Shown: positions 386 to 29,900 of the stretch, in pieces
How the letters are laid out: every line of letters starts with the position of its first letter
How positions within the stretch are numbered: position 1 is the first letter of the stretch
Origin: Chlamydiota bacterium
Lineage (GTDB): Bacteria > Auribacterota > JACPWU01
NCBI GenBank assembly: GCA_016196885.1
Contig: JACPWU010000003.1
Coordinates: forward strand, 1 to 32,000
Length of the DNA stretch: 32,000 nucleotides
Direction: 5' to 3'
Made by a program: the position numbers and the translations under genes
The notes under the pieces: generated by a model
The model's input: the letters and a program-made list of their open reading frames with translations, nothing else
What the model was told of the DNA's origin: nothing
Database searches by the model: none

Positions 386-468
386 TCACTCATTAAACTT
401 GTTTGAAAGTTCTCATGGTCCTGATAAAATGTAGGCATGAGAATATTTTTCGAAAAAAGGTTATTCAA

Positions 469-759
469 ATGACGCGAGACGGTATCTTAAATTTCCTTCG
501 TTTGCATAAAACCGAACTTAAAAAAAAATATGGGGTTGTTAAAATCGGATTGTGTGGTAGCTATGCGAGAAGAGAAGAGAATGAGAAAAGTGACATTGAT
601 CTTCTGGTTGAGATAACAAGTTCCAACAAATTTAGAAGTTTTTTTGACTTATCAAGTTTCCTTGAAACTCAATTTAAGAAAAAAATAGATTTAGGTCTTG
701 AATCCTCTCTTAAAGAATTTATCCGTCGTAGAATCAAGCAAGATGTGATCTATGTCTAA
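469..759 (+). CDS. mntA: Minimal nucleotidyltransferase (MNT/MntA-type) antitoxin.
   Basis: Carries the GLCGSYARREENEKSDIDLLVE motif (GS...DxD of the pol-beta-type NTase fold). The protein is about 96 aa from the ATG at 469, with AAGG upstream. The track ORF (403..759) starts at an upstream TTG. The stop overlaps the next gene by 8 nt. Confidence 0.8.
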   Translation: MTRDGILNFLRLHKTELKKKYGVVKIGLCGSYARREENEKSDIDLLVEITSSNKFRSFFDLSSFLETQFKKKIDLGLESSLKEFIRRRIKQDVIYV

Positions 760-1198
760 TCGTGATATTGAACACTACATTGTTGATCTTGTTGTTGCGA
801 TTTTTAAGATCAATTACATGGTTCAAGATTTTCGATCGGAAGGTGATCTTTTAAAGGATTTTAAATCGTATGATGCCGTGCTTCGGGAGCTTCAAATTAT
901 TGGTGAGGCCATTGGGAATCTTCTCAAGAACTCAATACTGGATGAGCAATATCGTAAAATAGTTGATTTTAGAAATAAAATTACCCATGAATATTTTGGA
1001 GTTGATATTGAAATTGTCTGGGCTGTTCTTAAAGAAGAGATACCTTTGCTTGATAAAATGCTATTTAAGCTAAGCAAAGGTTACTCCGAAAAGACCAAGT
1101 TAATCGAAGCGGTTGATTGTGCCTTGATTGATCATCAACGAATAAAACAGAAAGTTGTTGAAGACTTTCTGAAAAAATTTAGAAAGAACCTCATTTAA
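752..1198 (+). CDS. hepT: HepT / DUF86 HEPN-domain RNase toxin.
   Basis: Contains RNKITHEY, which fits the HEPN Rx4-6H motif. Its ATG overlaps the mntA stop (ATGTCTAA), the typical MntA-HepT operon layout. Confidence 0.8.
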   Translation: MSNRDIEHYIVDLVVAIFKINYMVQDFRSEGDLLKDFKSYDAVLRELQIIGEAIGNLLKNSILDEQYRKIVDFRNKITHEYFGVDIEIVWAVLKEEIPLLDKMLFKLSKGYSEKTKLIEAVDCALIDHQRIKQKVVEDFLKKFRKNLI

Positions 1199-1664: not shown

Positions 1665-1693
1665 TTGAGAAAGTCGTAACTTGCTGCTATATT
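1665..1693 (+). promoter_or_regulatory. Candidate sigma70-like promoter for giant gene 1 (TTGAGA-N17-TATATT).
   Basis: The hexamers are at 1665-1670 and 1688-1693 with a 17-nt spacer. AGGA at 1701-1704 and the ATG at 1710 follow. This is motif matching only. Confidence 0.25.
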
Positions 1694-1709
1694 GATAATT
1701 AGGACGATT

Positions 1710-3330
1710 ATGTTTATTAAGAAACTGATTTCCATTATTACTTTAATCGCCTTTGGTACCCTGGATGAGGCTCTGTTGTGGGCCTCTATTTCGTCCAACC
1801 CCTTTAAAGTTGTAAGTCCTTCTCAAACAGTATGTTTCGATATATTTATTCCAAAGGATTTGGGCAGCGTTGTTGAGAAATACCAATCCCCCGGCTCGGA
1901 TCATACCGTGGTTCTCTTTCAGGACATTCACGCTAACAGTGAGGCTCAAAGGAGCACTTCTGAGCTTTTAGAATACCTTTCTCGCAAATATGGCTTAAGG
2001 CTGGTGGCCATGGAGGCCGCTTCAGGCAAGATTCCGACAGAGCTTTTTAAGGACTTCCCGGACAAGGAGGTGCTTCGGGAGGTGACGGATTTTTATGTGG
2101 GCTTGGGCCAAATGACAGGCGCTGAGTTTGCAGCTTTAAATGGAGCTAAAGACCTTGAGCTTTTTGGAATCGAGGACATGGATCTCTATGGAAAGAACTT
2201 TTCTGTTTATTTGGACACGCTCCTCTTAAGAAAAGAAATCAAGGAACAAATCTCTAAGATCAAACATTGGCTTTCGCTCTTGAAGGATTATATTTTTTCG
2301 CGCGACATGAATGATTTTGCACGTCAGTTTGAAGATTATTCACAGAATAAAATGGATCTTGAAAGGTTTGCTCCGGTTTTGGAGAAGTGGGTGGAAAAAT
2401 TAGAAGTAACCCCCCTAGCCCCCCTTAAAATAAGGGGGGGAAAACTCTCCATGAGGGGAGAAAATCCCTCCCCTCGTCATTCCGAGCCCTCTCCCCGTCA
2501 TTCTGAGGGAGTCGGGGCGACCGAAGAATCTCGTTTTTCTCATTTCCCCGAATTCTCAACCTATCTCAAAATTTTAGAGCTCAAGAAAAAAGTGGATTTC
2601 AAAAAGCTTCATGAGGAAATGGCGAAGCTTCTTATTTCCATGAGTGGAAAAGTGAGTGGGGAAGAGCTTGGAAAATTCTTAGAGAAGACATTGGCCTTTC
2701 GATTGAATGAGGTTTCGGATCGGGACTTTTATGAATTCGTCAAAAAGTTTTCTGAAGAACAGGGAACGGGAGTTGAAAAATATCCAGCCATTCAAAATTA
2801 CATGGCCTATCTGGAAGAGGACATGAAAGTGAATGACCTGCAACTCTTCGAAGAGGTTGAAAATCTCTCTTCTCAGACGCTTCTTTCGCAGTGCGAGACT
2901 CCGGAGCAAAAATCCCTTTGCGAATATATTTTTTACGCCGATCTCCTCAGCCGCGTTGCAGATTTTGGCGTGAAGCGTTCTGAATATGAGTCTTATCTCT
3001 CCAAGAAGAAAGAAAATATTTCCAAGATGATTCGGTTCATTCAAAAGAAGGCGGACACTTATTTTAGTGAGGGAACCGTTGGGAAAATAAAAGGGCATTT
3101 GGATCAGGAGTTATTGAAGCTTCAGGTCTACTATGAATTGGCTCTGAAGCGGGATCGTCAGATGGGTGTTCATGCACTTGAAAAATTAAAGTCCGCGGGC
3201 CCGGGGGTGAGTGCCTTGATCGTAGGAGGATTTCACACGGAAGGCATTGCCAAAATTTTGAAAGAGAGGGGTTATTCTTATTGGGTCGTGATCCCTCATG
3301 TTAAGGATATAACGGGTGACCATTATGAAG
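1710..3330 (+). other. N-terminal module shared by both giant proteins. A tentative fit is the Tiki/TraB/ChaN/EreA-like fold.
   Basis: VVLFQDIHANSEAQ...GLRLVAMEAASG...ALIVGGFHTEGIAKILKERGYSYWVVIP aligns with VILFQDVHAQREAQ...GLRLVGMEAASG...ALIAGGFHTQSLTQALKDAGYSYQVVIP in giant 2. The paired N-terminal xxH and C-terminal GGxH motifs recall that superfamily. I did not run an HMM. Confidence 0.35.
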
Positions 3331-6300
3331 AGGTGATGCTGAGTCAAAGGACATCCGCTTCTACCTTTTCTTCCGCTCAGGATGAAAGACCCCTCCCACG
3401 CGTTATTCGCAAGATGACTGAGGAATCCGGTTTTTTAAAAGGGAGTTCTCATGAAAATTTGGCTCCGCAGCCCATGCTCTCTCGACCTGGAGGTCCTGAG
3501 ACACTGGCCAGGCGTTTGAATATGGTTTTGGCTCGGGTAAGAGCTGCTCAACCGGTTGTGACGAGGGCCGTACGTCCACCCGAAGCGATTTTGAGTTCTT
3601 TGCTTTTGGCTTCTCTTGCGGAACTGATCGTCTATTTTGTGGCGGGGGGACAGCAGGGCGGTGGGATGGCAATGATTTTAATGGGGTGGCCACAGTGGTG
3701 GTCTAAGTGGTTTGGAAAAACAGTTTCCCAAACAGGTGCCCCCGAAGTTCTAGTCAGGGAAGTTCCCCCGGCTCCCTGGGAGGAGGGATCCCCGACTCCA
3801 GGGGTAGAGTCTCGCGGAGAGCCTCTAAAGGGGATTTCTCACGTTCCGTGGGAGGAGGTTCGAGGGGCTCCCTCTGATCTTTTTGAAACTTTCATGGCTC
3901 GACAGACGCGCCTTTCTCCAGAAGATCTCACTTCTTTTCGTGGAAGCGTTTTTGGAATGATCGAGAGCGCCATTGGGCAGGGTGATTTTCGAACGGCTAC
4001 CTCTATTCTCATAGAGATTCAATCTTTATCTCAAAGAGTTGTTCAACCTTTGGCGAAACCTTCTTTTGCTCAAGTATTGAATAAGGTTGCTTTAAGGAAG
4101 GCCTTTGCTGAGGGTTTAGCTTTGGGTGTTCAAGAGGCGATTAAAGCTAGAAACCCGCTTGTTATCAGGGAGGTGTACCAGACTCTTTCAGCGTTCTCTT
4201 CAGATGTTTCTTCTCTGGAAAGTATTCAGAATCAAATCATGGGGACTTTGAGGGGTCTTCTTCGGGATGCTTTTGAGGCGATTCAAACAGGAGATTTGGC
4301 TCGAGCCAGACAACAGATGTCTTTGTTTAATGGCATTTGGGATTTGTCTGTAACTTTTGAAAGGTCTGTTCGGGATAAACGGCAAAGGGAATTGAGCGAC
4401 GGAAGGGCAAGAGCAGAAAAAATCTTAAGGCTGTTACGCCCCGAAGAGGTGCCAGTCTATCAAGCATTTTATAAAGTTCTTCAGGTAGATAGAGGGACTC
4501 TTGGGAGAGACTACCCTCTGGCTCGGTTAGAAGGGCTGTATCAAAACTTGTCTTCCTCTTATCGGAGTCTGAGCCCTGAACTTCAGGGTTTACTGCGTCA
4601 TGATTTTGAAATGATGCAATCTTCCATTCAAGGAATCATTGTGATTAGGTTCAATGCTGCGAATGAATTATTGGAAAGGGAGGTCTATCGAATCAATCAA
4701 GGAGACAACATTGAAGTTGCTGAAATTTATAAGATGTTACATCACTTAAGCACTGTGTATGAACGGATTTTAGCGATGGGGGAGGTGATAAGGGATGTGC
4801 ATTATGAGGGAAGAATCATCGGGAAGACGGGAAAAGATTATGAAGAGAGAGAGATGTGGGCAGGGGATAGGGCAAGACAAAAATCGAAAGAAGTGCAGGA
4901 GGCAGCTCGGGAATCAAGGCTTCGCGTTCGTTTAGAGGGAGAGTTGAGGCCTGTGATTGATCCATCCTTAAGGCCTGGCTATGAAAGGGAATTGGAAGAG
5001 GAATTAGGGGGATCTGGCTTGGAGCCGGGAAGCCGAGAATACCATGTGCTTCAAAGAAGATTGAGAACCCGGTTGGAAGATCAGATGACCCGTGCTGTGT
5101 TGGAGACGGTAGGAGAAGTGCTAGAAGGGAAGGCTTCTCGAGAAAGAGAAGCTCGGGTGAGAGCTCTGATAGAGGGGCAAGATCAATCTCTTCAGAGGGA
5201 ACGTGCTCAAAATACGCTTACGGGCGCTCTTCAAAGGGCATTGGATGTTGTGAGCGAGCTCTATGTGAGAATGTATTCTTCTTCTCAGTTGTTAGAAATT
5301 TTTACACAGGCCTCTATCCCAGCGGATGTTTTAAGGGCTTACATTGATATTTTTAGACAGAGTATTTTAGGGAGAGATATTCATGAAATCATAGGCGAAG
5401 TGGCCCCGACCAATGAATCTTCTCGAAGTGAATTGCTGACGCAAGTGGATGGGTTGAGAAGGGGGTTCTTAGCCAAGTTATATCCTCAGGCAACGTTGGA
5501 TGTTCTTTGCATGACTTTGAGTCGTCTTGCCCAGAGAGAGGAAGAAATGCTTGAAGAACGTGCCCGCCTTGCGAGGGAGAGTCTATTGAGTCCCTCTCGT
5601 TTGGCGGCTATGCCGATGCCTTCTCTCGAAGAGCTGCTTCCCGGTTCTGAAATGATGGGGCAGGCCCTATCCCCTGAGGAAATGGCGGCGGCCGCCGCGT
5701 TAGTTCCTAGACTGTGGGAAAAAACAGGTGATTTGGGCCCAGAAGTTTCAACTTCTTTTCAAAGCCAGCCAGGAATGCCTCCTGAAGAAGTGTTGAGGGC
5801 AGATTTACCGGAGACATCAGAGACACCAGGTGCCCCCCCTGCCCCAGTAGATCTTTTATTGAAAGGGGAGGGTCTGTCATTGCCCCCTGAAGGAGAGACA
5901 GCTCGAGAGGGGTTTTTTGTCTCTCATATTCATGACGTCGTTGATTTGGGAGGGGTCCCTGATGTAATAATTCAGGCAGTCGCAACAGATATTCCTGCAC
6001 AAGGTGCTATTGTAGAAACTTTGGAAGCGGAAGAAGAAGCGGAAGAGGAAGGAGTGGACGAGCTAACAGAAGTGGTTCCACCCAGAGGTGCTGGACTGGC
6101 CGAAGCGGAAACAGAGAAAACGGTACTGATAGCAAGAGCCCCTTCTATTTCCATGCCCAATCTTGCTGAAAATTTGCAAGGTCGGGTTGAAGCACAGGAA
6201 GAGGGCGAACGGATTGATTTGGGAGAATTGTTAAAAGAGGAAGGTCTGCCAGAATTTAATGTTGCTGACATCTCCAAAAATCTTAAATTTGCTGAGGCTC

Positions 6301-9300
6301 AAAGTGCTTTAGATAGCTTTCGTTATGACCAAGCAGGTGCCTTTTTTGCAGAGTGGTTACTTTTGGGAGAAAGTTCTGAGGAAGTCTCTGAGATGGCCGG
6401 TCGTCTTTTGAGCCCCTTTCAATCTCTCTCTGGAGAAAATGGGACGACTGTTTGGAAAAGTTTTTGTGTTCAGCTTGTAGAGGGTTTAAATGAGGAGAAT
6501 ACCTCTCATAAGTTTCCCTGGGTTTTTCGTGCTTTATCTTCCCTAGATTCAAATTTCCCGGAGCGCTTGCAAGAGGCTGCTACAGAAAGTTCAGCTGTTT
6601 TTATTCTGGAGAAAATTCTTATTCGGAGGCTTTTGGATGTAGGACAAGATGGCCTCGATGCTGTTTGTAGAGGCGTCTTATCGGATATCCATTTACTGAC
6701 GGACGATGATTCCAAGAGATTTGTTTTGCAGGGGATTAAGGGAAACAGTCGAGTGATGGAAAAATTAGATCGGGCATTTTCTGCTAATTCATCTCTTGAA
6801 ATAAATAAACTTCTTGATCAGGTTCGTCTTCTTGATTTAGAAGAGGGGGATGTTTTAATTCCTGATTCGACTTCGCGGAGTGGTACGGGTGGCTCTTCTA
6901 ACCATTTTTCCCTTTCGAGCGTTTCTCCAGCCATCATTTTACTTGTTTTTGCACTTGCAGGGGTGATGGCATCTTTGGCCCGTCATTCATTTTCATCTGT
7001 TGAACCTCAGGCGGCTGGGATGTTGCTCTTTGCGGGTCCTTCCTTGCTTCTTTTGGGCCGGAGAATCGGCCCCTGGCTTGCCTCCCTTTCCGAGGCTCTT
7101 TGGCGTCGAATGGTGCGAGTGGATGGGGGTGGAGAAAGCCTTGTCGGGATGAATCAAGCGGCCTCCTTTTCTGACGGTCAGAATCTAGGGGTTTTTGATG
7201 GGATGAATGGGGCTGCCAGTCGGGCTGCAAGCGGGGCCATTTCTCATGCAATGGCTTCCTTGCCTCGGGATGCTTCTGAAGAAGACATTGAAGCAGGCTT
7301 GAAGGATGCGTATGCCCGCGCTAGTCTTCAATTCGGTGAGACGATGGCTGCGACGGCCCGGTTGTTCACGGATCGGTATGGGGTTCAAAGAGTTGCAGTC
7401 GCAAACGTGGGAGACACCCGCGCGTATTTGATTCGGGGGGGTAGGCTCCTTCGATTGATTGAAGAGGCCCCTGATCAGCCTTTGAGATTTAAACAAGAAG
7501 GAATGACAGGCGTTCCTCAAATCAGCATCCATGTTCTTCAGCCTGGGGATGTTCTCTTTCTTTCTTCTCCGGGCCTTCATCAGGGTCTTTCTGATGAAGA
7601 TATTCTAAAAATAGCTCAACGCCGTTTGAAAAGCTCCCATCTTTTGGCTCAGGAACTCGCTCGTAGCGCCTTCGTGCAGGTCTTAAAATCCCGGTACACT
7701 CAGGATCCAGAGATGCTGAGAAGGGTGATGGATCAGTATCAATGGAATTTTGCCCGAGCAAAGGACGATCAGAGACTGAGTTCTGCTGTTCAAGAGGGAA
7801 ATCCTGTTAGGGTACCTGATGTAACGGTGGAAGTCGTAACCTTCCCTGCGTTTGGTGGGTGGAAGCGATTTTTTACAGAATTTGTTTTGGGACTGAGACT
7901 TTATTTTCTCTCAAGGGATTCTCAAACCGCTCCCTCGCTAGAAGTGATTCAATCGGCCATCCGTTTGCTTCAAGTTTCGAACCTGCCCATGGTTCGGGGT
8001 TGGGCGGGGAATATCTTGTATCACATCTTGTCAACCAGAATGAAAAACATGCCTTCAAATATGAGACCTCTTCTGGGATTTTCTCAGTCCATGTTTGCAA
8101 TAAGCGGTTCTCTTCGTGATTCTGGGGTGTTATCAAAAATGCCTGAAGCGCCCAGGGAAGCCTTGGAGGACGTTCTTAACCGTTATGATGATGAAGTGAT
8201 GGAAAAAGTGAAGGGATTGAATCACCTAGGTGCTATTGAAGATCTTCTGCGGTTATTGGATGAGCGAAGGCAATATCCCTATCCATTAGAAAAAATTATT
8301 TCTTTTCTGCAATACCATTTACGAGAAGCAGCCTCTTTAACTTTTCGAGATGTCGGCCAGCAAATGAATCATGAGCTTTATTTACTGGGAGTTTGGGAGG
8401 AGCTTCATTCTGCGATTGCTTCAAATCCTCTTCTTCAAGTCTCGTCCACCGCAGCCTTTTTTAGGGAAGCCTATGCTCCACAAAGGGGAAAGTTAGTGGC
8501 TACTGTTGAACCTTTAGTGAAGGAAAGGCTGTCCGAGCTGGAAGGTTTGAGAGATCAGCTGAAAAATCGTGTGAGCGTAGAGAACTGGGATGCTGCGGGG
8601 GGTGTGTTAGAACAAGTTCAGGCTTTGCAATGTGCCATTCAAGCGATGAATCTTGCGACCTTGCTCCCTCCGTTGGCAGGCCGATGGGTAGAGGTTTCTC
8701 AAGTACTGGCGCAGTTGGAAAGGGTCGAGAACGAACTAGAGAACCTCCGTGGCCATTTGGAGGACGCTCGTGTCTATGTAGAGGGGAGAAATTGGCCAGA
8801 GGCTCAAAAATCGCTTGAAGCGGCGAGGCGTTTGGCAACAGACATTGAAGCGCTGAATTTGAACCATTTAATCCCTCGCGTTTATCAAGATTTGTCTCGA
8901 GAGATTGAGAATCATTTTAATCAGGTGCAAGAAGCAGAAGCAAAATTGACCGAGCTTGAAGCTTTGCTGACGCAAATAGAAGATCTTCTCAAAAGAGGAA
9001 AAACACAAGAAGGAAATGTTATGACTGTTGCTGAAGGTTTATTGGAGCAGGCTAAGCAGATAGAAAGGGGTTTGTCAAACAACGGTTTGGGGACCAGTAT
9101 TTCTGAGAGATTGATTTCTACCAGCGGACGTATCAGGAGGGCTGACAAAACTATTCGTATGGCTCATGAAACCTCTCTCCGCTCATCCGTTTCGGCTCAA
9201 TCTGCTACGGGGGTTGTGTCTAAAAGCGATCGAGAAGAAGCGTCGGAAGATTTAAAGCCAGTTCTGAAGGATATATTCTCTTTTGGGTTTAGGAATTTGA

Positions 9301-16384: not shown

Positions 16385-17930
16385 ATGAAGATGGTTAATT
16401 CTTTTTTAAAACGTGTGATTTCTTCCATTACTCTCCTGGCCTTTTTGTGTATGGATGAGGGGTCTCTTTTTGCGTCTACGCTTGCACCTCAAACTCATGT
16501 GACTGACGTCCCTTTGCAACTTTCATCTGATATTTTTATCCCCAAAGAATTGGCAAGTGTGGTGGAGAAATATGAGGCTTTGGGGGCTCATCATACTGTG
16601 ATTCTCTTTCAGGATGTTCATGCCCAAAGAGAGGCTCAGAAAAGTTCGGCGGCGACCCTGGATTATTTAGCTCAAAAATATGGATTACGCTTGGTAGGCA
16701 TGGAAGCTGCCTCGGGAGCCGTGGACGTGGCGTCTTTTAGAGATTTTCGGGATAAGAATATTCTAAAGAATGTAACAGAAAAATATCTGGGTCGGGGAGA
16801 GCTTTCAGGGGCTGAGTTTCAGGCGATCAATGGGGCGCAAACCTTTGAGCTTTACGGGATTGAAAATCTTGAAGCCTACCTTAAGAATTATCATGCCTAT
16901 AGAGATTCTTTTGCCTTACGTCAAGAGCTGAAGGAAAAAATTCAGGGCTTAAAAGATTTTCTTTCTCGCATTCAAGAGTATGTTTATTCCTCAAGCGTTC
17001 AGGCCTTTGCCAAGAAATTTCAGGATTATGGAGAGCATAAAATTAATTTGGAAAAATTTATTCCTTTTTTAATGAGCGAGGCCCAAAACGCTGGGGTTCG
17101 TTCAGACTCTTCATCGTTATTAACTTTGTATTTGAAAGTTCTAGACGCTAAAAAGAAAGTAGATTTTAAAGCCCTTCACGACGAAATGGCCCAGCTTCTC
17201 GTTTCCCTGCAAGGTAAGGTAGATGAAGACGAGCTCTCCAAATTCTTAGAACTCACGTTGACTTATCGGCTGAATGAGATCTCGCCTTTAGAATTTTATC
17301 AAACAGTTAAAAGATTGATGGATAACTCACGACTCACGACACACGACTCACAACTGCCTTATCCCAACATTCAGCATTACATGGAATACCTAGAACTGGA
17401 TTTGCAGGTAAATGATTTGCGCCTGTTTGATGAGATTCGGTCTTTGAGTGAAAAAGTTTTGATTGCCAAGTGCCAAACTGATGAAGAAAAGCTTTTGTGT
17501 CGTTATGAGATGTTTGTGAGCATGCTCACACGGGTAGCCGATTTAGCTCTTTCCAAGTCTGAATATGCAACTTATGTTGCCGGTCACGGAAAATTAATTC
17601 CAGAGATGATTCATTTTATTCGCAAAGAGGCGGATGAGTATTTGATGGATCAAAATCTAGAAGCATTGAACTATCCCTTTGAAGAAAAGCTTTCAAAGGT
17701 TGAGACCTATTATCAAGCGGCTTTGGAGAGAGATGAAGAAATGAAAGCGCGTTTGATAGATCGCCTGAAAAATGAAAAGAGCGAAGTGAGTGCCCTTATC
17801 GCCGGAGGTTTTCATACGCAAAGCCTGACTCAGGCGCTTAAAGATGCAGGCTATTCTTATCAGGTGGTGATTCCCACTTTTGATGCAACGAAACCCGATC
17901 ATTATCAAGATGTGATGATGGGGAAAAAGA
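16385..17930 (+). other. N-terminal module paralogous to 1710-3330.
   Basis: See the alignment blocks listed for 1710-3330. By eye, roughly half of the residues are identical across the conserved blocks. Confidence 0.7.
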
Positions 17931-20900
17931 CCCCGTTTGAAAAGTGGCTGTATGACAATGTCATACAGCTAACTCCCCCTACCCCTCTTACTTTAAGAGG
18001 GGAGAAAAACACGGATGTTCATTTCGAAGTGAGCGGGGGAAGAGGCCGCGTCAGCAATCGAAGTTTTCTGACAAAGGGTGCATCTCATGTCACGCGCGAC
18101 GGGCTCTTGATGACACCTTCCATGCTCGTTCGATATGGGGATGAAGAGGTTGATGCTCAAGGATATCTTCGAGAATTGTGTATGCACTTAGAGATGTTGG
18201 CAGGTTTAATCAAAGCCCGTTTCACAGACGAGGGAGAAGCGCTTGATCTAGAACGCTTGAGAAGCGATTTAGCTTTTTCTTCCCCCTCTTCCGAAAGTCT
18301 CGTATTCCCCTCCCTTGATGGGAGGGGTAAGGGGAGGGTGGTCTCAAATCCTCCCCCTAATTTAAGTTCATCCTCTTCTTCCCCCTCTAATTTAAGTTCA
18401 TCCTCTTTTTCCCCCCTTAATTTAAGGGGGGCTAGGGGGGTTATTCACCCTTTAGCTATCCTCGACTTCACTCACCTTAGCCTACGCACAAGTGGAGCAT
18501 CAAGACAAATCCTCGTCCCCATCAGAAATTCTAATCGTGTCCTTGTTCTGGATCCTGCTGGATTTATTGTAGAAGAGAATGGAGATTTTAAGGGGCTGGC
18601 GGTGGAGCTTTTAACGCAATTGAAGTCGCGCATTTTTAGACGAAGATCAGCCGTTTTAGGTCTAGGCCTTTTGGGGCTTATTGCGGTGAATGTGGTTCGA
18701 GCCGAGGGGTTGCCGTCGGCTCCTCCTTCCGGAACAGTGCAAAAGATAGGTGGGGAATCGGAAGGAGCTGCTGATCAACTGGTAAATGAGAGAGCTGATC
18801 TGGCTAAAATTGAGCGAATCCTTCGTGCAACTGGACTGAAACAAAGTGATTATGATTCTGCGATATCCAAGCTTAGGGATTTAGTTAACAATCATTCTGA
18901 AATCATTACTGCTTCAACATTAGATGCTCTTTTAAGCATGCCCCCGGATGTGTTGAAAAAAACTGATTCTCCATATTTCACAGAGTTTTTTAAAAATATC
19001 CTTCAGCGTAGACAAGATTTTGCGAATGAAGCTCTCCTTCAGAAACTTCTCTCCAATTATGATAAAGGTCTGAATGAGAAAAAAGTGGAAGAAGAACCTT
19101 ATTTAGAAGTTGATATTCGGAGCATGTGGGCCTATACGATTCATATTTTAGGGGAGATAAAACCTGATTTGATTGTGGACGGGACGCTGCCCTATTTTAT
19201 GAAATCTATACCGCCCTCTGTTTTAGGGAGTGGTTTTGTTCAGAGACAATTTTATTTCAGTCCTGCTTTTACCCGTCTTACTGAAAATAGGTCCGATGAA
19301 GTTAAATATTCTTTGTCGCTTTCGGCCTACTTATTTTTAACACGGGGAGGCTACCCCTTGAATGAAAACAATATCGAAAAGATGGTTCAATTTTTGATTG
19401 AGAAACGCGAGAGAATGGCTGAGGATGTTGTTCTAGGCCCAGCACACACGGTCATTGGTGTGGTCAACAACACAGTAGGGGCGGGCGCAGAATATGTTAT
19501 AGAAAATCTTGCAGGTTGGGCAAAGGTCCCCCATAACTCAGTTCATTCTTTTCGCGTAAGTCCTTTGTGGTGGGATTTAATTTCAACTAAAATGTGGCTT
19601 GCCAATCAAATTATTAAAAATCAGGGCCCGCTCTTTGTAAATCTTTATTTTCATGGGAATGATCATGAATTGGAGGTGGGTGTTTATGAGGGGCTCTTGG
19701 GTGGCGTGAAAGCCGTCTATTTGACAGACCAGGAATTAGCTGAGGCCTTAAAGGCAAGGGAGAAAAGTGGCAAAAGAGTGGATGAGGTTGTCTTTTTTTT
19801 AAATGCCTGCGAAGGGCGTTTTGGTGCAAATTTAGAAATGGATCTCTCTCGTTTAGGGGTGAAAACATATCCCAAGATATTGCAAGCGGCTCATTATGAC
19901 TCTTTTGCTTCATCGGGTGTTTTTTCTGTTCCCTTTCATGAAATCAGTGTGAAGCATCCAGATATTGATGGTTTGAAAGTCAAATATGTTTATGAGGCAG
20001 CAGAATATGCTTTTCAACAGGGAGAAGATTATTTATTCCTTGTCTCCGTTCCTGAAGCGGATGTTGATAGATTAAAAGCTTCTTTAACGCAAGATCCTGT
20101 CCCTGCGTCCTCTGTTACATTACCCTTTTTCCCTACGGTACCACCGGCTCTTCCTGACGGTGTCATTGAACTAGGTTCTCTGGTTTTACCCTCGGTTAAA
20201 TCCACTCCTACTCAGACGACAAGCCTCGCCTCCAGAATTTCCAGTCCCCTAGGTATGGCCCTTCTTTCTCAACCCCTCATTCTACTTCTAACCACTTTGC
20301 CTGCGGCGGCAAGAGGGCTTGGAGAGGGAATTTTCAAAGATGGAAGTTTTATGACATCTCTTTCGCCTCTGGAGATTTTCCTTTCCTGGTGGCCGCTTGT
20401 TATTTTGGGTGGCTCTATAGGAGCGGTGATGTTTTACCGATATTACCGTCCCCAATTAAAAGAGATTTCTGAACGTGTTGGCAGGTGGAAGAGTCAACTC
20501 ACATTTGGATCGCCATTAGCAGATCTCGGAAAATGTGTCACAGCGGACACCCTGTTGCCAATCTTGAGAAAGCGAGGGGCTATAGGTTTGGATCTGGGAG
20601 AAAAAGAAGAGACTGAACTGTATTATTCAGAAGTCATCCCGATCGTCCAAGTCCGTTCTGGCGATTATGTCTATTCTCTCAATGAAGGCACGGGCCAGGT
20701 TGAGCCTCATCGCATTGTGGGACTCCTCGATATGGGGATTAAGCCCGTGTTTAAGCTTACGACTGAGAGCGGTAGAAGCATCAAGACGACAGCGAATCAT
20801 CCTTATTTAAAGAAGTTAGGGGCTGAGGGCTGGGGGCTGGGGGCAAAAAATAAGTTAGGGGCTGGAAGATCGAATCAGGTAGATACCGCGCGGGATCATT

Positions 20901-23900
20901 TTTTACACTTGAGAGAGCAAACGGAAGTATTCCGCCCGCGAGATACTGGCAACTTTCAGATTGTTCAAGATGATAAAGACGGGAATGGCCTTGTAGCGTG
21001 GAATGACCAGAGGACGAAGTGTGCCTGGCTTTGTATAAATCCTGTGATCCCCTTCTTCTCGGGAGAGCTGAAATCCAGCCCGTTCGAAGACACGGCAGAG
21101 CACTTGATAGGAAATAGGTGTGATTTTAGAATACATGTGGACGCATCAGAGAGCGACCTGACTATGTTCAGTGACGATCAGGGGAGGCGCGATCCATTCT
21201 TTTCTGGAAGAATCTTTCTCTATGAATCCATCTTCACGGAGAATATCCTCAAGGGTGCCCATGCGTTTGCTTTCCTCGAGGAAAAGTCTGACGGCTTCCT
21301 TGCCTCTTTCCCTGGCTTCGTCCACGCTATCCCCGCAACTGGTGACAGAAAGCTCAGGGCAAAAGCTAACGTAGGTCTTCCCCTCTTTAAACACCAGCAA
21401 AGTGAAATCAAGTCTCATCATGGATCCATTGTAGCACACCCTTCTGAGAAAATAAAACGCCAAAGTAGAAGGATCAAGACGACAGCAAATCATCCGTATC
21501 TTAATAAAATGGATCGTGGATCGTGGATTCTGGATTGTGTCTCTACGTATTTTCCATCATCCATCATCCATCATCCATCATCCTTTTCAAAGTGGACCAA
21601 AGTCAGCGCTCTTCAGGTGGGCGATGAGATTGCGGTGTCCAAAGAAAAATTACCTTCTTCGATAAGCGTCCTCTCGAGCGTCAACGCCATCAATGATAAT
21701 TTTTGCGAATTCAATGTAAAAGAGAATGCGATATTTACCGAATTTGGAAGTCACTCAAACATCCTCTGGGACCCCATTGTCTCCATTGAGTCAGTGGGTT
21801 TTGAGCATGTCTACGATATTGAAGTAGAGGGGACGCATAATTTTGTTGGAAATGGAATTTTTGCACATAATACGGCGATATTCGCAACCCCCACCCCACA
21901 GACCCTAAGCCAGGCAACGAGCAATATTGTGGGTGAAAAACTTTTGGATGAATTTGAGAAGTTAAATGGGGATAGGCCTCTTCAAGAAATTTCTATTTCT
22001 GAAAAATCGGGTCAAGTGCTTGAACCGTTAAGACAAGCTTTAGAGGGACATGAGGATGCCAAGTACATGATGGTTCGCATCGATGTTGAACTTTCACAAG
22101 GGGTGGTTAATCATGTCATCGTTATAGATACCGTAGAAAACTTGCGAAGGGATGTTTTGCAGTTGACCCAAGGTTCTCTTGATCTAGCCCGCATTTCTCA
22201 TCACATTTCTGCTGCGAGTGCCAATTCTGCCTCGTCTGCGTCGTCAGACTCGGTCGGCCACGCTCAACATATTGCAAAGTATGCCTCGCATGGCCTCGGT
22301 CGTCTTCCTCGCATCCAAGGCAGACCTGACGCTCTCGCGACGAAATCTGATGAGAAATGCGGGCTAGAAGGTTTTGAGTTTATTCTCAATTACAGCGAGC
22401 ATGGAGCGAGGGAAGAACAAGGTGTTGGAGAAACTTTGGTGTTCTTGCATAACATAACGCTGGGCACGTCTGGACAGTCTCTTCTGCGTGGACGAGGTCT
22501 GATGTCGAGTGTCATTTCTCAGTGGGCACGGTATTTGGCTGAGTCAACGTTGAGTGGTAGACTCACCTTGGCCACCGATGCAAAACATCCAGCCACCATC
22601 TCTTTATTTAAAAAACATTTTCTTGCGCATGCGCCCTCTGATCTTGAGAAAATAAGTTTGAAAGACCGTTTTAAAGTGGATGTTGAATACACCACTGTTC
22701 ATCCCTTGTTTGGAAGTTTACCCATTGGTCTTCGTGACGCGCAACGTCCAGTGAAGATTAAATCGCTGGGAGAAATTAAATTAGTTAATGGGACTTATGA
22801 AGTGGAAATTCCTTCTGGGGTGCTTCCAGAAAATCAGGAGGGAAGGATTGTTACTGAAATCAATGAAACCTTAAGAGATGTTTCTGATTGGCTCAAGCAA
22901 TCCACCCTGTCTCGAATTTCAGGTTTTCGTATGCCTGAAACTTTAGACTTAAGTGTGGCAAGTTTTTTTGAAAGTTTAGCGGGTTCAACACCCGAGCGTG
23001 GAGAACAAAGGGCGGGTCTTATTTTGGCTCGAGAGCTTTTAGCGATTCAAGATCCTCAAGGAAGAAGGCAGTTGATGCGTCTTGCGATTCTTCACGAGTT
23101 AGCTAGCTTGATTTGGCCTTCATTGATATGGCCCGAGCATAGGAGAGGCCGCTCAGGCGATATTTTAATGGAGGTAGATGCGCATTATCTTGCAGACATG
23201 ATGTCCGGTGAGAGTGGTGACGCATCTATTCAAGCGATTCATGGAGTTCTTTCATCCTATGCTGAAGGACAAACGATTGTACGGGACCGTGTCTATGCCT
23301 CAAAAAATCCCATTGATGTGGCGATTTACGATTATTATCAATTTACACAGTTGGTGAGGGAGTTTCGAAGTCAAATCATTTCAAATCAACCTGTTCCAGA
23401 ATTAATCAGTTATGCGCGTTTCATGACCTCACGTCGTAAAGATATGGATGCCAGATCCGTGGTGGACGAGCGGGTAGAGAGAATTAAGACGGGTCAGAAT
23501 CTTTCCTCCGATGATCCCTCTCGAATTAAAGATCGCTTGAATGCACTGGTTCGTGAGCTAGAGTCGGATGATGCATTGGCCTTGTTAGACAGAAAACTTG
23601 AGGTGGGAGATGATGTGGTCAATTTCTATTGGCGGGGGACAGGCGATGAGGAAACGATAGGGTTGAAACAGGCTAATGATGAAATATGGGGATATGGTTT
23701 AACCAATCAATTGATCAGTGTGGTACAGAAAGGTGCTTTGACGCTCATGGAGGAGAGTGGGCTCGTAGAGCTCACCCTAGAGACAGATGATAAAGGTGTG
23801 CTTCATATCAAAAACGGCAGAGACTTGATTCGAAAAAATTATAAATCTACTGTTTTTCGTGTTGCGCAAGATCGCAGGGTTGGAGATTATGAATTGAGAT

Positions 23901-26900
23901 TAGGAAATATACAACTTCAGTTAAACGATGCACTCAATCGCTATGTGCGAGGGGAGGAAACAGCTCTTTTAGGTAAGCCTGATGAAGCGATTGTAAGTCG
24001 CTTCCATCAAAGTGTTCGCGATCCTAAGAAGAAAATTCAAATTGATTTTGGAATAGGGACCGTTCGTGGCGGAGATTTAAGATCCAAGGTGGAAGCCGAC
24101 TCCGAAGCGATTAAAGCCGCGATTATGGCGCATCACAGTGAAGCAAGAAGATTTGATCAGGAGACGTTCGAAGCGGGTATTGAAGAAGCTGTAAAAATTA
24201 AGAATATTTTGATAGAGGCACGGTTTTCTCTTTTTACAGCTTCAGGTGAACTTGATTCAGACACGTTTGATCATTTAAGGAAGTGGGAAAAGTTTGAAAA
24301 ATCTCAGCATGATACTTGGAGTGGAGTTCTTGGTCAATCCTCCATGACGTTGACTGATGTCCAGAGTTCCGTTTCAGAGGGAATGAGCTACCCAGAATTT
24401 CTTGAATCGAGAAACGCATCGGGATTATTGCAAAACCATTTGCTTCGGAAACTTTATCATTATCATTTGGCCAAGCACTTTTTTGAGTGGGTAGGGATTG
24501 TAGATTATATTAAAGAGTGGCAGAGTGATGCATTAAAGGCACAAGAGAGATCTCGACAGGTAAATGACGCTTTGAAGTACATTCAGGAAAATCGCTCTGA
24601 ATATGAAAAGATTATTGGAAAATTATCTGAAGGAGTTCCATCCCTCGAAACCCATGAAGCGTCTTTACGAGAGAGTATGGAAGAAAAGATTCGTTTAGCT
24701 CAAAGCCTTCTTTCCTCCGATCGAAAAATTCCCGGGTGTACCTCCAGAAGAGTTTTTGACGCTCGGGCGTTTAGCCATTCAGAAAAAGGAATGGTTTTTA
24801 TCAATTTGGATGTGAAAGGCATGGGGCGGGAGAACTTTAAGGATTTTCTGAAGCGTGTAGAGAAAATTCATGAACTGATTCAACAGAAGAAATCAAATCC
24901 TTCCCTGACAGAGACAGTCAATGAGCAAATTCTCTCCCAGACATTGATTGCAGGGGATACGGTCACAGAAAATTTTGTTAAAGTTGGGAAAAAGGCAGTG
25001 GGTGTGATAGCAGAGCGATTAAAAGAGAGGCCAGATTTATTGAATCAAATGGGAATTTTCTTAAATTCCGATGGTTCTATTGATGAAGAAAAGACCTTAA
25101 ACTTGGTTGAAGTGGGCGGCGATGAACTGACGTTTGCGATTCCCCAAGAGGCTCTTCAATTGATTGGAGAAGAGGGCCTTTCTCAGATTCAAGTTGAGGC
25201 GGGCACGCGAATGATGGTGAGTCCCGTGGAAAAGGAAAGAGTAGATCGTCGAGACGAGGTTAATTACGGATTGGCAATTGCAAAGCTTGATGAGGGAACA
25301 GCCTTGGCAAAAGAGTTGGAGGCGCTTGGATTTAAGGATTTTTTTGTCCGACGTCTTTTTGATGAGACAACTAAAGAATATTTCTGGAAGGCTTTTTTTA
25401 GAAATGCCGAAGGGAATATTGAAGAACGTGAAATGGGTTGGAGGCCTGACATGGCTCGAGGAGATGTGGGACATGGAATGCTTGCCATGAGACCCTACCA
25501 GATCACACGATTTCAGGAGCATCTTCGATCTCCTCGGACGCCGATGTTTGATGCAGCTCAATATCTTAAAGGGCTTCTCTCTGATTCAGGTTACTCAAGC
25601 TCGGTTGTGTCTCTTTCTTCCGAAGATTTTCGTTCGTTGATGATGGAAATAGAAAATGGAATTTTTCAGGCGGGTTACTTTGTCCCTGGTTTTGATTTTG
25701 GGGATGAAGATAGGCTTAGGCAGTTGAAATCTTTAAAGAGCGAAGTTGTGAGAGTACGGGGCGTGAATAGAAATCTCCCTCCTGAAGGGGTTGAGGTTAA
25801 AAATATAGAAGCTGCCATAGATCAATTGGTGAATGACATTGTCCAACACCCTGAAGTTAACCTGCTTATTATTACCGGTGTTCCCGGTGCTGGGAAAGGC
25901 GTATTTTCAAAAGCATTAAGACAAAGACTTGAATCGACACTACAATCAATAGGCTCAGATAGAACAGTTCAATTAATCGAGCGAGATAAATGTTTTAGTC
26001 CTTCCGGTGGATGGTATCGTGCAGAAGAGGAATATGATCCAGACACGATTTATGATGTGGAAGGACCCGTGTTTGCTGGGGAAATGATAGAAGAGTTTAG
26101 AACTCACATGGTCAATGGGGTTCCTCCGCTTCGAGCTGAACAAATTCGAAGAATTGGCATTTTTGCTCCCATCGATCAAATTCGCGGCCAATTGGCAGAG
26201 CGCGGTCGTACCTTAGAAGTAGACCATACAACGGATGTACAACTTGCGGCCGAACTTGACACCCGTTTCGATTATTGGTACTTCGGCGAGGATTTTTCGA
26301 AATATACTCTCATGGTAGATAATACCAGAGCCTCTGGATCGACAGGCGAAAGTGGACATGAAGGGGGGTCAGGGGCAGAGACCCTGGGTGAGACCCTCTC
26401 GAGAGGTATCCCCACTGAAACCGTGGCCGGCGCGCATCCGGTGAGTACGCCTCAAAACCGAGGAGCGAGTTCCAAACTTAATTTGTCGGCTTCTACCCCC
26501 GCCATTCCTAAAGAGGCGCGTCACGGCAAACCAGGCAAAGAACCTCAAAAAGGTTTTGCCATGATAGAAACCTTTGTTCGGGCTCTTTCGGGTGGAAGCG
26601 CTGTGATGTTTTTTGTTTTTCTAGGCTGCTTTGGTTCTGCGTTATCTGTCTTGGTTGGTGGAAGAAGTAATATGCCTACAAATACCAATATTGAGGATAT
26701 CACCTTTCAAAACCGAGGAGCGAGTTCCAAACGAGGATCTATCAGTCTTGATGAGAGAGGAGGGGTCAGACCCTTAACACGCACAACGACAATCGGACGA
26801 TTGGGTTCACGCTCATGGCTGAATCTGGCCAATGCCATACTCTCTTTGTTATATTCAGGGTTGTCTTCGATTTGGAAGACGATCAATGCCTCATTCGGCA

Positions 26901-29900
26901 CTTTTCCAGCCAATTTGTCGTCACTCAACATGAGTTTACTCCACTCTGTCGTAAGTTCTATGGTCTTGTGGGTAAAGCTCTCTTCACGCATCATAATTCA
27001 TCCGCTCCTTAATGTATCGGTCTCGGTAGAGGCGCCAGTTGATTTTAAGATCTTGTTCAGCAATCGTCAGGGCTTCGTTCAAGTCAACCAACCCCATGGG
27101 CGTTTTTTCGACGGCACGGCCAGGCCGGTACAGGTCACGATGGGCGAAATCGTGCGCCGTGTCATAACGAACGATTGGCTCCCAACCGTTCCCACTCCAA
27201 TACTCCAATTGTACCACAAATTCCACGACTTGCTTTCCAAATCGCTGGTGCCAATGTCTCAATCGGCAATCCCTGGGCAAGAGGTCGACCACGAAGCTGC
27301 GAATCTGAGCCATCCGCTAAGTCTATCGCATGCCCCAGGATATGTCAATGAGGCCGGGCGAGATCTATTGACTTCCACTTCCACCAAAGCCGCGGGCGGG
27401 ACACATCCTCTTTCTTCAAACAGAGTCACCGAAATTTTGGGCAAGATGAAGGAAAGGGGAATTCAAGGACGGGTGATCGCCAGAGATGATTCTCGCTTTA
27501 AGGGCATCGAATCTAAAACGGATGATTTCTTAAGACCTTTAGGTCTTGCAGGTGAAGGAAACAAAGGCTTGGAAAGCATGACGGTTTTTGACGAGGTGGA
27601 TTTGTCTTACACCTCGACGGATGGAACCGAAGTGCATGTGAGCCTCAAGAAAGGCGATTCTGTTTTCACAGTGACAGAGACCCAAAAGGGAGAATCTCGA
27701 ACGACCCAAATCGTTGCTTTTAGAGATGATGAAGGCGGCGTTTATACAACAGCAAGATTTTGGGATCAAGCGTCTGACGAGGCTTGGGTCGAGCTCTGTG
27801 TTCATGAAATCAGCGAAGTCAATGCGAAGACGAACCAGAAAATTATTTCTGCGCTTAATCAAATTCAAGTGGATTCCACGGGTCCCGATGCTCGAGTCGA
27901 GTTTTTTAAGCGATTTTATGTTTCTCTAACAATTCAAAACAATCAGATCACGAGTCTTAAATCTTCTAATGAATCCGATCCGGCTCACGTTCTAGCTGAG
28001 TTTCTGGAGGTGGTCAGGACGTTACAAGTTTTGAGGCAACCCATCACGACAGAAAATGTATTAAGGACGGTCAGCGTTTTGGATCAGAATATAGGAGGCC
28101 TGTCTCAAGGTTTGTCTAAAAATCCTCTTGTGGGACAAGAGCCTACCCATCGGTTTTCAAATTCGAATGCAGAGTTTGTTGATTCAGAGAAGTTGAAGAG
28201 ATTAAGAGGATTGGCGGAACTCTTTTATGAGGCTTATACAGATGCTTTTGAAGCCAATAGACTGAGTCAGGGTGAAGCCAAGTGGACCGAAAAGGATATC
28301 TTCATTACAGATCCGCTCACGAATCAAAAAATGACCATTCAGGATCTTGAAAATATTGAACTTCAATTAAGCGTTGGAGAAAAGAAAACAGAGGCTATTC
28401 AAGGAGAATATCGTCCCTATAGAAGACGCATTGCTAATCTTAAAGGTGTTAAACGTTTAAGTCTCCAAGATGCTTATGGTCCCATGCTTAGAAAAGTTCA
28501 ATCAGAGTTAAGTCAGGGTAAGCAATCTGTGGTTTTGCGCATTGGAGGACGAAGTGGCACCGGCAAAACAAGTATTGCGGATGAGATGGGTAAGTGGGGA
28601 CTGGGCCCTATTTTACCATCAGAAATTTCTGTCTTGCATGCGGATGATTTAGTTGGTTTTGACTCTATGCGGCTTGCTGTTGAGGTCGAGAAGAAAAAGG
28701 GAAAGAAGTTGATTATTTTAGAGGGAACTTATTCATTGCGTGGGAGAGAAATGATTTTTGAAGAGAATGCTCCTGAAATAGAAGCGGACGTTCAAGTTTT
28801 TGTGGAATTACACGAAGATACCCGCGTTCAGCGTCTTTTTGAGAGAGCTCATTTTCGTGATAGATCCTGGATTGCCTATATGGATCGAGTGATCAAGGAT
28901 CGAGAGGATATTCTTCGGGTTGCAAGCAGATACTTGCCTGAGTCCTTAGAAAAAAGGATTGTGGATACAGTCCAACAGGTAGATGGAGAAAAAAATGTTG
29001 CAAAGGCAGGTGGGTATTATAAAGCTGCAAAGAAACTACTCTTAGAACATCTTTTAGCTGTTAGAACACAAGGTGCAAACTCGATGTTTGATTTTGCGAG
29101 AGTAGAAAATCTAATCGATCGCTATACCATTGATCAGGAACGAAGAACAGCGGACATTATTATCAAAAATGATCAGTATAATACCGGATTAGGTGTTCTT
29201 GCTGACAATCAAAGCCTCATTTTTAGAGACTCTTTGAAGCGACTTTCCAGTTTACTTCCTTCAATACAGAAAAATAAAGATGAGATTGTGACCCTTATCA
29301 TCACACTTGTTAGAGATTTTTCAAGCAACCCTATCATTTTAGGAATAGAAGACTTGTTTCAACAAGAAGGCACGACACAAAGACTTACAACAATGAAAAC
29401 AGATCCATTAAGGAAATGGGTAGAAAAATTCTTAATTTTACCTGCTCATGTTTCTCAGCTCTCAAGGTTGGTAAGAACCAGCTTAAGAGAGACCTCTCGA
29501 AATCCCAGCTTTCTCCACTCTACCCTGGGCGATAAGCCTAGAGATGAGGTGAAGCGATGGATTGATCAAAATGCTGACTTCGTAGAGCGATATGCTCCCA
29601 TCAGGCGCGGCTTGTCACAATTTATGCGCCGTTATTCTTTGGGTGCTGCGAATATATTGGGTGGCTTAAGTGTGGGTTTCTCAAGAGAGACGTGGTATCG
29701 AATTTTTGCGATTGGGTTTGTGGGATCTTTGATCAGTGGGATGGCCGCATTTGTTTTATCTCTTTCTTCAGATCGACTTGGCTTTGCAATATTGTCAGGT
29801 CTTGCGATCACTTTATTAACCTCAGTTGTTGTAGATGATATGGCCATGAGTTTTGCAGAGGCACATTATGTAGTAACGAGTGAGAATTATTTGGCAGGAA

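Follow-up and report, generated by a model that had tools for sequence, protein, structure and literature searches.

Inteins that carry a homing endonuclease are selfish DNA residing in a host gene, and they are rendered harmless to that gene through protein splicing. Type II toxin–antitoxin cassettes, such as HicAB and those found in superintegrons, consist of two overlapping co-directional genes, have a promoter of their own and show a patchy distribution. Antisense overlapping genes, also known as nested or shadow genes, lie on opposite strands in the codon-aligned −1 register, which is the register most tolerant of double coding. Giant genes of the 'Archaeovorin' type in Omnitrophota are multi-kb open reading frames (ORFs), and post-translational cleavage of their products has been proposed, with the cleavage points stated to be unknown (West-Roberts et al. 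2023, 10.1101/2023.11.21.568195). The first 32,000 nt of contig JACPWU010000003.1 (GenBank assembly GCA_016196885.1), which come from a Chlamydiota bacterium placed by GTDB in Auribacterota and are hereafter called the window, contain giant genes that resemble those of Omnitrophota in their length, in their many transmembrane segments and large unannotated stretches, and in their kinase, phosphatase, P-loop and sugar-metabolism enzyme domains. On the strand opposite to one of them, giant 2, lie two small genes, here called cassette 2. Cassette 2 is probably a live, self-transcribed two-gene module that is carried antisense within a genuine giant gene, in a spacer between domains; the frame of the giant gene appears to be kept open there mainly by selection at synonymous sites.

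Cassette 2 shares the three features of type II toxin–antitoxin cassettes named above, and true families of that type, HicAB among them, occupy equivalent nested positions. However, it has no match to a known toxin or antitoxin family or fold, and it is situated inside the opposite-strand coding sequence of a gene that stays intact. It follows the same logic as inteins, in that a foreign module persists in a large ORF because the host product survives, but it has no Hint or intein domain, its cargo is on the opposite strand with its own promoter, and it would be harmless by virtue of a stop-free antisense frame rather than through a demonstrated excision. It shares the codon-aligned −1 register with antisense overlapping genes but differs from them in that a whole promoter-bearing operon is embedded instead of a single ORF, in that only the protein of one strand is conserved while the other strand is merely open, and in that the arrangement recurs across many genomes and in several cassette families. 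Antisense or nested genes and inteins in giant genes are mentioned neither in the study of giant genes (10.1101/2023.11.21.568195) nor in a 2026 Omnitrophota preprint (10.64898/2026.06.07.730766). Literature searches returned no papers on DUF7718 or DUF5647, the families to which the cassette 2 proteins belong, no description of toxin–antitoxin genes nested in giant genes, and no description of a HicA pair as intein cargo, the papers that combine HicA, inteins and homing endonucleases being unrelated to judge by their titles and abstracts. The components are known, and a prior description of the arrangement or of its recurrence was not found in the searchable literature.

The two small genes of cassette 2

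An initial annotation, made by a model from the letters of the window, described two overlapping minus-strand ORFs, regarded them as different from the antisense junk of the surroundings and could not assign them to families. Both ORFs are reproduced at the same positions (Table 1), and both turn out to belong to Pfam families. The upstream ORF is a full-length DUF7718 protein (PF24839; E 6.9e-32, 109.8 bits against a cutoff of 25, profile positions 7–102 of 104), and the downstream ORF is a full-length DUF5647 protein (PF18882; E 3.4e-13, 49.6 bits against a cutoff of 27, profile positions 2–75 of 79). An alignment of 22 DUF7718 sequences has 18 invariant columns, all of which are present in the cassette 2 protein, including RYDTAH-FAHRD, which is the His-rich motif already singled out in the initial annotation. 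DUF5647 follows and overlaps DUF7718 in every locus fetched for DUF7718 hits, and the overlap in cassette 2 suggests that the two genes may be translationally coupled.

The DUF7718 proteins closest to that of cassette 2 are 76–80% identical in a collection of 5.8 billion proteins, and thirteen close homologues of its DUF5647 protein were found. The DUF7718/DUF5647 pair is widespread, with 282 relatives among numerous phyla in GTDB species genomes and over 486 in JGI metagenomes; the GTDB genome collection is without a close relative of cassette 2, the best match being 55% identical. The DUF7718/DUF5647 pair is usually free-standing among ordinary small genes, including those of ParE and HTH proteins, and HicBA genes are also found as neighbours. 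A public collection of 15 billion proteins lacks the cassette 2 pair, neither gene having been called by the gene caller. Judged by their sequences, the two small ORFs of cassette 2 are real genes.

The closest nested relatives of cassette 2, at loci L001 and L002 (~71% nucleotide identity), were used for a comparison of selection on the two strands. Substitutions among the three loci at codon positions 1, 2 and 3 number 18, 10 and 63 in DUF7718 and 28, 10 and 58 in DUF5647, and amino-acid identity is 82% for the small proteins versus 38% for the giant-frame peptide encoded by the same DNA. This third-position bias and the difference in identity indicate that the minus-strand proteins are under purifying selection. 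The plus-strand giant peptide over cassette 2 is evidently free to vary except for stops: both strands are open beyond chance, and conservation of the amino-acid sequence is found for the minus-strand products only. The initial annotation had named, as the sign of artefactual ORFs, small ORFs without homologues or expression opposite a conserved plus-frame peptide; what is found is small genes with homologues opposite a poorly conserved peptide.

The sigma-70-type promoter that the initial annotation placed upstream of the two genes is present. The ATG of cassette 2 is located 6 nt past the −10 box, so that a near-leaderless mRNA is predicted. The architecture TTGAC-N17-TAnAnT-N6-8-ATG is kept in seven of eight deeply diverged nested homologous cassettes, where the surrounding giant-frame peptide is not kept, which argues for an autonomous, near-leaderless transcript. 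No convincing terminator was found after cassette 2.

The failure of the public gene caller to call these genes, together with the lack of a known function for either family, would agree with a decaying relic, in which cassette 2 is a dead toxin–antitoxin remnant with ORFs intact by chance and only the giant frame is functional. However, both ORFs are full-length with all family-invariant residues, the third-position bias reveals that selection acts on the minus-strand proteins but not on the plus-frame peptide, the promoter has persisted among nested copies despite their deep divergence, and thirteen further nested copies are all intact, making such a relic very improbable.

The open giant frame and its recurrence

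In the codon-aligned antisense register, stops in the giant frame arise only from TTA, CTA and TCA codons of the opposite gene. The DUF7718 gene of cassette 2 contains none of these codons because the giant frame aligned with it is open, and the frame crosses the entire 607 nt of the two genes without a stop, as the initial annotation had seen. Stop avoidance was assessed by synonymous-codon resampling at the frequencies of the host, where TTA and CTA together account for 29% of the Leu codons and TCA for 18% of the Ser codons. Over DUF7718 the giant frame was open in 2.2% of the trials, over DUF5647 in 10% and over both genes in 0.26% (P = 0.0026), in agreement with the earlier opinion that chance is an unlikely explanation. 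The same resampling gives P values ranging from 5e-5 to 0.04 at ten other nested loci, and the 11 loci combined give a summed log10 of −29.9 (~1e-30), a value that assumes independence though some of the loci are closely related. By this measure, the giant frame across cassette 2 is evidently kept open by selection and not by chance.

Frame −1 is intrinsically stop-poor, and an open frame could in principle be a mere 'shadow ORF' effect, or else the product of a mis-assembled contig. Of 74 homologues that lack a long antisense frame, 12 have no stop in the aligned antisense of the 90-codon DUF7718 core, and the median number of stops there is two; antisense open stretches in free-standing homologues mostly span ~90–700 nt, and a long open frame covering the whole cassette is found in none of the 74 non-nested homologues. 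Neither chance nor an artefact is credible to any real degree, since the joint openness of the frame over both genes is improbable here and far more so over the 11 loci, the 5210-codon frame continues on both sides of cassette 2, and the same architecture is present in independent assemblies from other sites.

A search for further antisense pairs, which the initial annotation had proposed for other giant genes of the same bin, is productive in other genomes. The same cassette is nested antisense in at least 13 other loci, namely L001 (a JGI metagenome contig), L002 and L003 (Hainich groundwater), L011, L016, L020, L022, L023 and L024 (metagenome-assembled genomes (MAGs) of Omnitrophota), L015 and L018 (unclassified bacteria), L027 (a MAG labelled Planctomycetia) and L089, and short JGI contigs provide four more nested candidates. 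The stop-free antisense frames at the nested loci are 1.5–10.5 kb long, and on sufficiently long contigs they reach 5–10.5 kb or cover the whole locus. In 13 of 13 nested loci, DUF7718 is in codon alignment with the giant frame, and the frame of the second gene, DUF5647, varies. In a neighbour-joining tree of the family, the nested cassettes cluster, with few free copies interspersed.

Other toxin–antitoxin families are nested in the same manner. The giant frame of L015 contains a nested HicA gene (E 4e-16) with a HicB-like gene, that of L016 contains DUF5615 (3e-19), DUF433 (3e-17) and PIN domain genes, and that of L027 contains DUF433 (4e-25). Coordinate arithmetic places these HicAB, DUF433, DUF5615 and PIN genes mostly in codon alignment with the giant frame.

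At L089:9396-10288 (ENA ERZ21828376 contig-100_3612), HicB-like and HicA genes replace DUF7718 before a DUF5647 gene that is a close relative of that in the window, suggesting module exchange between nested cassettes. The antisense giant frame is open over the whole 10.4-kb locus, through the HicB-like, HicA and DUF5647 genes, and the giant gene is 5045 aa long according to the gene caller, extending beyond the locus. Two Elusimicrobia MAGs, represented by L012 and L019, carry cassettes of the nested clade with a low guanine-plus-cytosine (GC) content (0.30–0.37), in which the aligned antisense is open for 600–700 nt and so just spans the cassette; they may be former residents of a giant ORF or carriers of an intrinsic 'transparency'.

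Origin of cassette 2 and the repeats around it

The giant-frame similarity between the window and L002 covers nt 26708–27349, that is, exactly from the stop codon of the cassette to its −35 box, and the flanks beyond are unrelated. The distance of the cassette from the start of the giant protein is 3445 aa in the window, 1906 aa in L020 and 682 aa in L027, with homologous N-termini and non-homologous immediate flanks; the N-terminal ~520 aa of giant 2 match the cassette-bearing giant ORFs of L027 and L020 with E values of 2e-33 and 2e-20, respectively. The GC content is 0.50 in cassette 2 versus 0.43 in its flanks, and 0.41 versus 0.50 at L011. The variable positions, the homologous N-termini and the GC offset together favour mobility of the cassette lineage among these giant genes. 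On the grounds of the variable positions, the GC offset and the flanking repeats, we infer that cassette 2 was inserted into giant 2. The initial annotation had gone further and proposed a recurrent insertion of selfish or defence-type modules that survive only if they preserve the giant ORF; the recurrence and the open frames bear this out, whereas neither an empty site nor a match to a known toxin or antitoxin was found.

The giant ORF might instead have grown by in-frame gene fusion and thereby swallowed an opposite-strand intergenic cassette, the stops being purged afterwards by read-through selection. Free-standing cassettes are commonly located among other small genes, and L015 provides an example of fusion, in that a single stop-free minus frame at L015:1529-9679 joins the C-terminus of PGI, a 2-hydroxyacid dehydrogenase and a complete PEPCK via a short junction motif. 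The P-loop kinase-like domain of giant 2 upstream of cassette 2 ends at WYFGEDFSKYTLMVD, about nt 26338, and its only detectable homologue, P0039, ends ~20 residues past the domain in a record marked partial, suggesting a former gene end at about nt 26340. A 37-nt sequence containing GAAATCTGATGAGAAATGCGGGCTAG, present just upstream of the giant 1 start (1622–1658), recurs with 86% identity inside giant 2 (22342–22378) in a context of junk-like translation; it has no Rfam match and may be what remains of an earlier gene boundary. Such absorption has real support but is nevertheless unlikely, because the cassette is found at 682, 1906 and 3445 aa in giants with homologous N-termini and non-homologous flanks, the nested cassettes form a phylogenetic cluster as expected of a lineage, the GC content is offset from the flanks in both the window and L011, and direct repeats surround cassettes or cassette islands in several loci. 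Insertion and absorption are compatible with each other, and either route would give the arrangement seen today.

A perfect 26-nt direct repeat, TCAAAACCGAGGAGCGAGTTCCAAAC, occurs in exactly two copies in the window at a spacing of 255 nt, or 85 codons. The initial annotation had correctly described this duplication of the end of the cassette and the segment encoding a transmembrane helix between the copies. The helix corresponds to a hydrophobic 19-mer, AVMFFVFLGCFGSALSVLV, with a mean Kyte–Doolittle value of 2.37; BLAST detects no paralogue of the 229-nt segment in the window, and transmembrane helices also adjoin the cassette in L001, L002 and L089. The 26-nt repeat could have been left behind when a second copy of the cassette was deleted, or it could reflect the duplication of a target by an in-frame insertion at a later time. 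A second, degraded cassette copy was not found elsewhere in the window, and a shared hexapeptide in giant 1, QVTMGE, is attributed to chance. Cassette 2 also has a weak 19-nt inverted repeat with 74% complementarity.

Repeats and short motifs accompany nested cassettes in other loci as well. A 66-nt direct repeat with 97% identity and a spacing of 2028 nt surrounds a two-cassette island in L016, and short lineage-specific motifs flank the cassette on either side in L015, L020, L011, L022 and L024. In L015, a nearly invariant 15-nt motif, CGCTCCGAAGCGCGG, encoding RSEAR, occurs in 10 copies and delimits the PEPCK module and both nested toxin–antitoxin cassettes; L020 carries the same motif, and L011, L022 and L024 use the junction motif GCCTCCTCGCCGGTG, encoding ASSPV. 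All in-frame spacings measured between repeats or motifs around cassettes are multiples of three. The RSEAR and ASSPV motifs are candidates for cleavage or recombination junctions of giant Omnitrophota proteins. RNA folding of the 26-nt repeat and of the RSEAR-type motifs is no better than that of shuffled sequence, and the giants of the window have no recurrent in-frame junction motif beyond the 26-nt pair.

The organisation of L015 resembles that of integron arrays, in which small modules of discrete lengths, often toxin–antitoxin pairs, lie between short repeated junctions. The nested cassettes differ from integron cassettes in having no attC-like structured site, in having their own promoter and in that the whole array is one ORF, and the window differs from L015 in lacking a recurrent junction motif. 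No integrase was seen among the ORFs of the window that were scanned, in a scan that was not exhaustive. A broader and rather doubtful proposal is that giant ORFs of the Omnitrophota type are in-frame cassette arrays shuffled at short junctions, composed of sense enzymes and antisense operons of the toxin–antitoxin type, with cassette 2 as a passenger and the 26-nt repeat as a scar. If this were true, the junctions would be recombination sites, polyprotein cleavage sites or both, and a 'translationally transparent' lineage of antisense cassettes would have evolved to ride the arrays and may stabilise them against deletion.

Possible function, cassette 1 and the layout of the window

A probable sequence of events can be proposed for cassette 2 as a live module. 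It belongs to a DUF7718/DUF5647 lineage that is probably specialised to the giant ORFs of Omnitrophota and related PVC bacteria. The conserved unit is 642 nt, or 214 codons, in length and most likely entered by insertion in frame or by recombination. The operon, in the order DUF7718 then DUF5647 and spanning 26707–27348 with its promoter, would be transcribed from its own near-leaderless minus-strand promoter, and the giant protein would contain its reverse strand as ~214 codons of filler with no constraint on sequence, from which selection removes stops. DUF7718 is held in the codon-aligned antisense register, and codon junctions that create stops are avoided in DUF5647. The giant ORF may serve as a safe harbour for the module, as an imprecise loss would truncate the host gene, and the module in turn could make it costly to delete that region of the giant gene. 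It is plausible that the filler is removed by proteolytic processing of the giant protein.

The organisation of cassette 2, the company that such cassettes keep (HicAB, DUF433/DUF5615 and PIN) and the HicBA swap in L089 lead to the proposal that it is a toxin–antitoxin-like addiction or defence module, to which we give an even chance at best. The organisation is that of a type II system, with a small, adjacent, co-directional pair overlapping by 11 nt, a patchy distribution, and a pairing that is conserved with L089 as the sole exception. The AlphaFold (AF2) model of the DUF7718 protein, with a pLDDT of 93, consists of six strands and a long helix and has no fold neighbour in the PDB. The model of the DUF5647 protein has a pLDDT of 79, and its best neighbour, the uncharacterised T. 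thermophilus protein TTHC002 (2dbs; TM score 0.58/0.68), is not significant by E-value.

Several observations weigh against cassette 2 as an inserted toxin–antitoxin-like module. Orthologous giant genes with an empty site were looked for without success, although the initial annotation had advised a comparison with giant genes lacking the cassette: a search of the 5.8 billion proteins gave a single distant hit, and a metagenome scan with the upstream domain gave nothing. The 26-nt repeat flanks the neighbouring 229-nt segment and not cassette 2 itself, unlike a simple target-site duplication. The giant protein contains ~290 aa of filler with a transmembrane helix, and there is no intein excision route at cassette 2. 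The cassette 2 proteins have no sequence match in NCBIfam, PADLOC or the PDB, and in Pfam they match only the two DUF families, no DNA-binding antitoxin domain being recognised. The structure search that the initial annotation had recommended was likewise without a result, Foldseek giving no match at E<=0.001 for either model.

An excision route is present at the first nested cassette of giant 2. Cassette 1, a HicAB pair, is located within an intein, a point absent from the initial annotation. The intein has Cys1 in CVTADTLL, block B as TANHPYL and the end GIFAHN/T, and the HicAB pair occupies the position of the homing endonuclease. A 43-nt direct repeat around the pair (20772 and 21465; 86% identical, spacing 693 nt) duplicates the intein block B (IKTTANHPYL). 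Since HicAB is within the intein, protein splicing can remove the antisense filler of cassette 1. Four tandem TCCATCA heptamers, translated as SSIIHHPSS, are present at 21553–21580 in the intein region. An intein or another self-excising domain was also considered around cassette 2 and rejected, as positions 26120–28600 give no Intein_splicing, Hint or protease match even at E<=5; no splice junction of the type C/S...HN-C/S/T is visible in the giant-frame translation there.

Giant 1 and giant 2 have a common 32-nt upstream element (1271–1302 and 16283–16314; 97% identical), and their N-terminal signal or transmembrane sequences are homologous (1692–1800 and ~16420–16500), so that the two are paralogues with a common leader. 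Between them, a minus-strand ORF of 132 aa (15507–15905) contains a retroviral-type aspartyl protease domain (Asp_protease_2, E 7e-7), which is possibly of interest if giant proteins are processed. About ten closely spaced copies of a 12–13-nt motif, ACGTCCCCTAAA, lie at 173–385, upstream of the MNT/HepT pair. The whole window contains no Rfam families and no tRNAs.

Table 1. Coordinates of cassette 2, its surroundings and other features of the window.
Feature	Position	Strand	Description
DUF7718 gene	26984..27313	-	109 aa; ATG start; codon-aligned antisense (frame −1) to giant 2
DUF5647 gene	26707..26994	-	95 aa; ATG start; 11-nt overlap with the DUF7718 stop
Predicted sigma-70-type promoter TTGACA-N17-TAGACT	27320..27348	-	TTGACA 27348..27343, TAGACT 27325..27320; 10/12 consensus match
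26-nt repeat, copy 1	26452..26477	.	Repeats the terminal 26 nt of the DUF5647 gene, stop codon included
26-nt repeat, copy 2	26707..26732	.	Native 3' end of cassette 2; corresponding peptide conserved in L001 and L002
Inter-repeat segment	26478..26706	+	229 nt; giant frame encodes a basic stretch and then one transmembrane helix
Giant 2 spacer around cassette 2	26339..27400	+	~350 codons; inter-domain, without Pfam match, not conserved, stop-free
Giant 2	16370..31999	+	5210 stop-free codons; continues past the window end
Intein in giant 2	20534..21871	+	446 aa; Pfam Intein_splicing E 2e-18
HicA	20903-21136	-	Antisense in intein, codon-aligned
HicB-like	21146-21424	-	Antisense in intein, codon-aligned
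Giant 1	1692-15335	+	4547 aa; protein kinase and PP2C/SpoIIE domains
MNT/HepT pair	403-1198		Toxin–antitoxin pair (nucleotidyltransferase/HEPN)

If confirmed, the arrangement would join self-splicing introns and inteins as a third route by which selfish or defence-type DNA can occupy a gene harmlessly: stops are kept out of the reverse strand of the module, and the host ribosome therefore reads through it. The absence of the cassette 2 pair from the 15-billion-protein collection illustrates a systematic failure of gene callers to detect real genes within giant ORFs, and antisense filler, as opposed to structure, may make up some of the 'unannotated' bulk of bacterial proteins of record length. 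With the junction motifs of the related loci, the question of whether giant Omnitrophota proteins are cut, and at which points, becomes open to testing. Giant genes may be safe harbours for toxin–antitoxin modules, or may themselves be stabilised by them.

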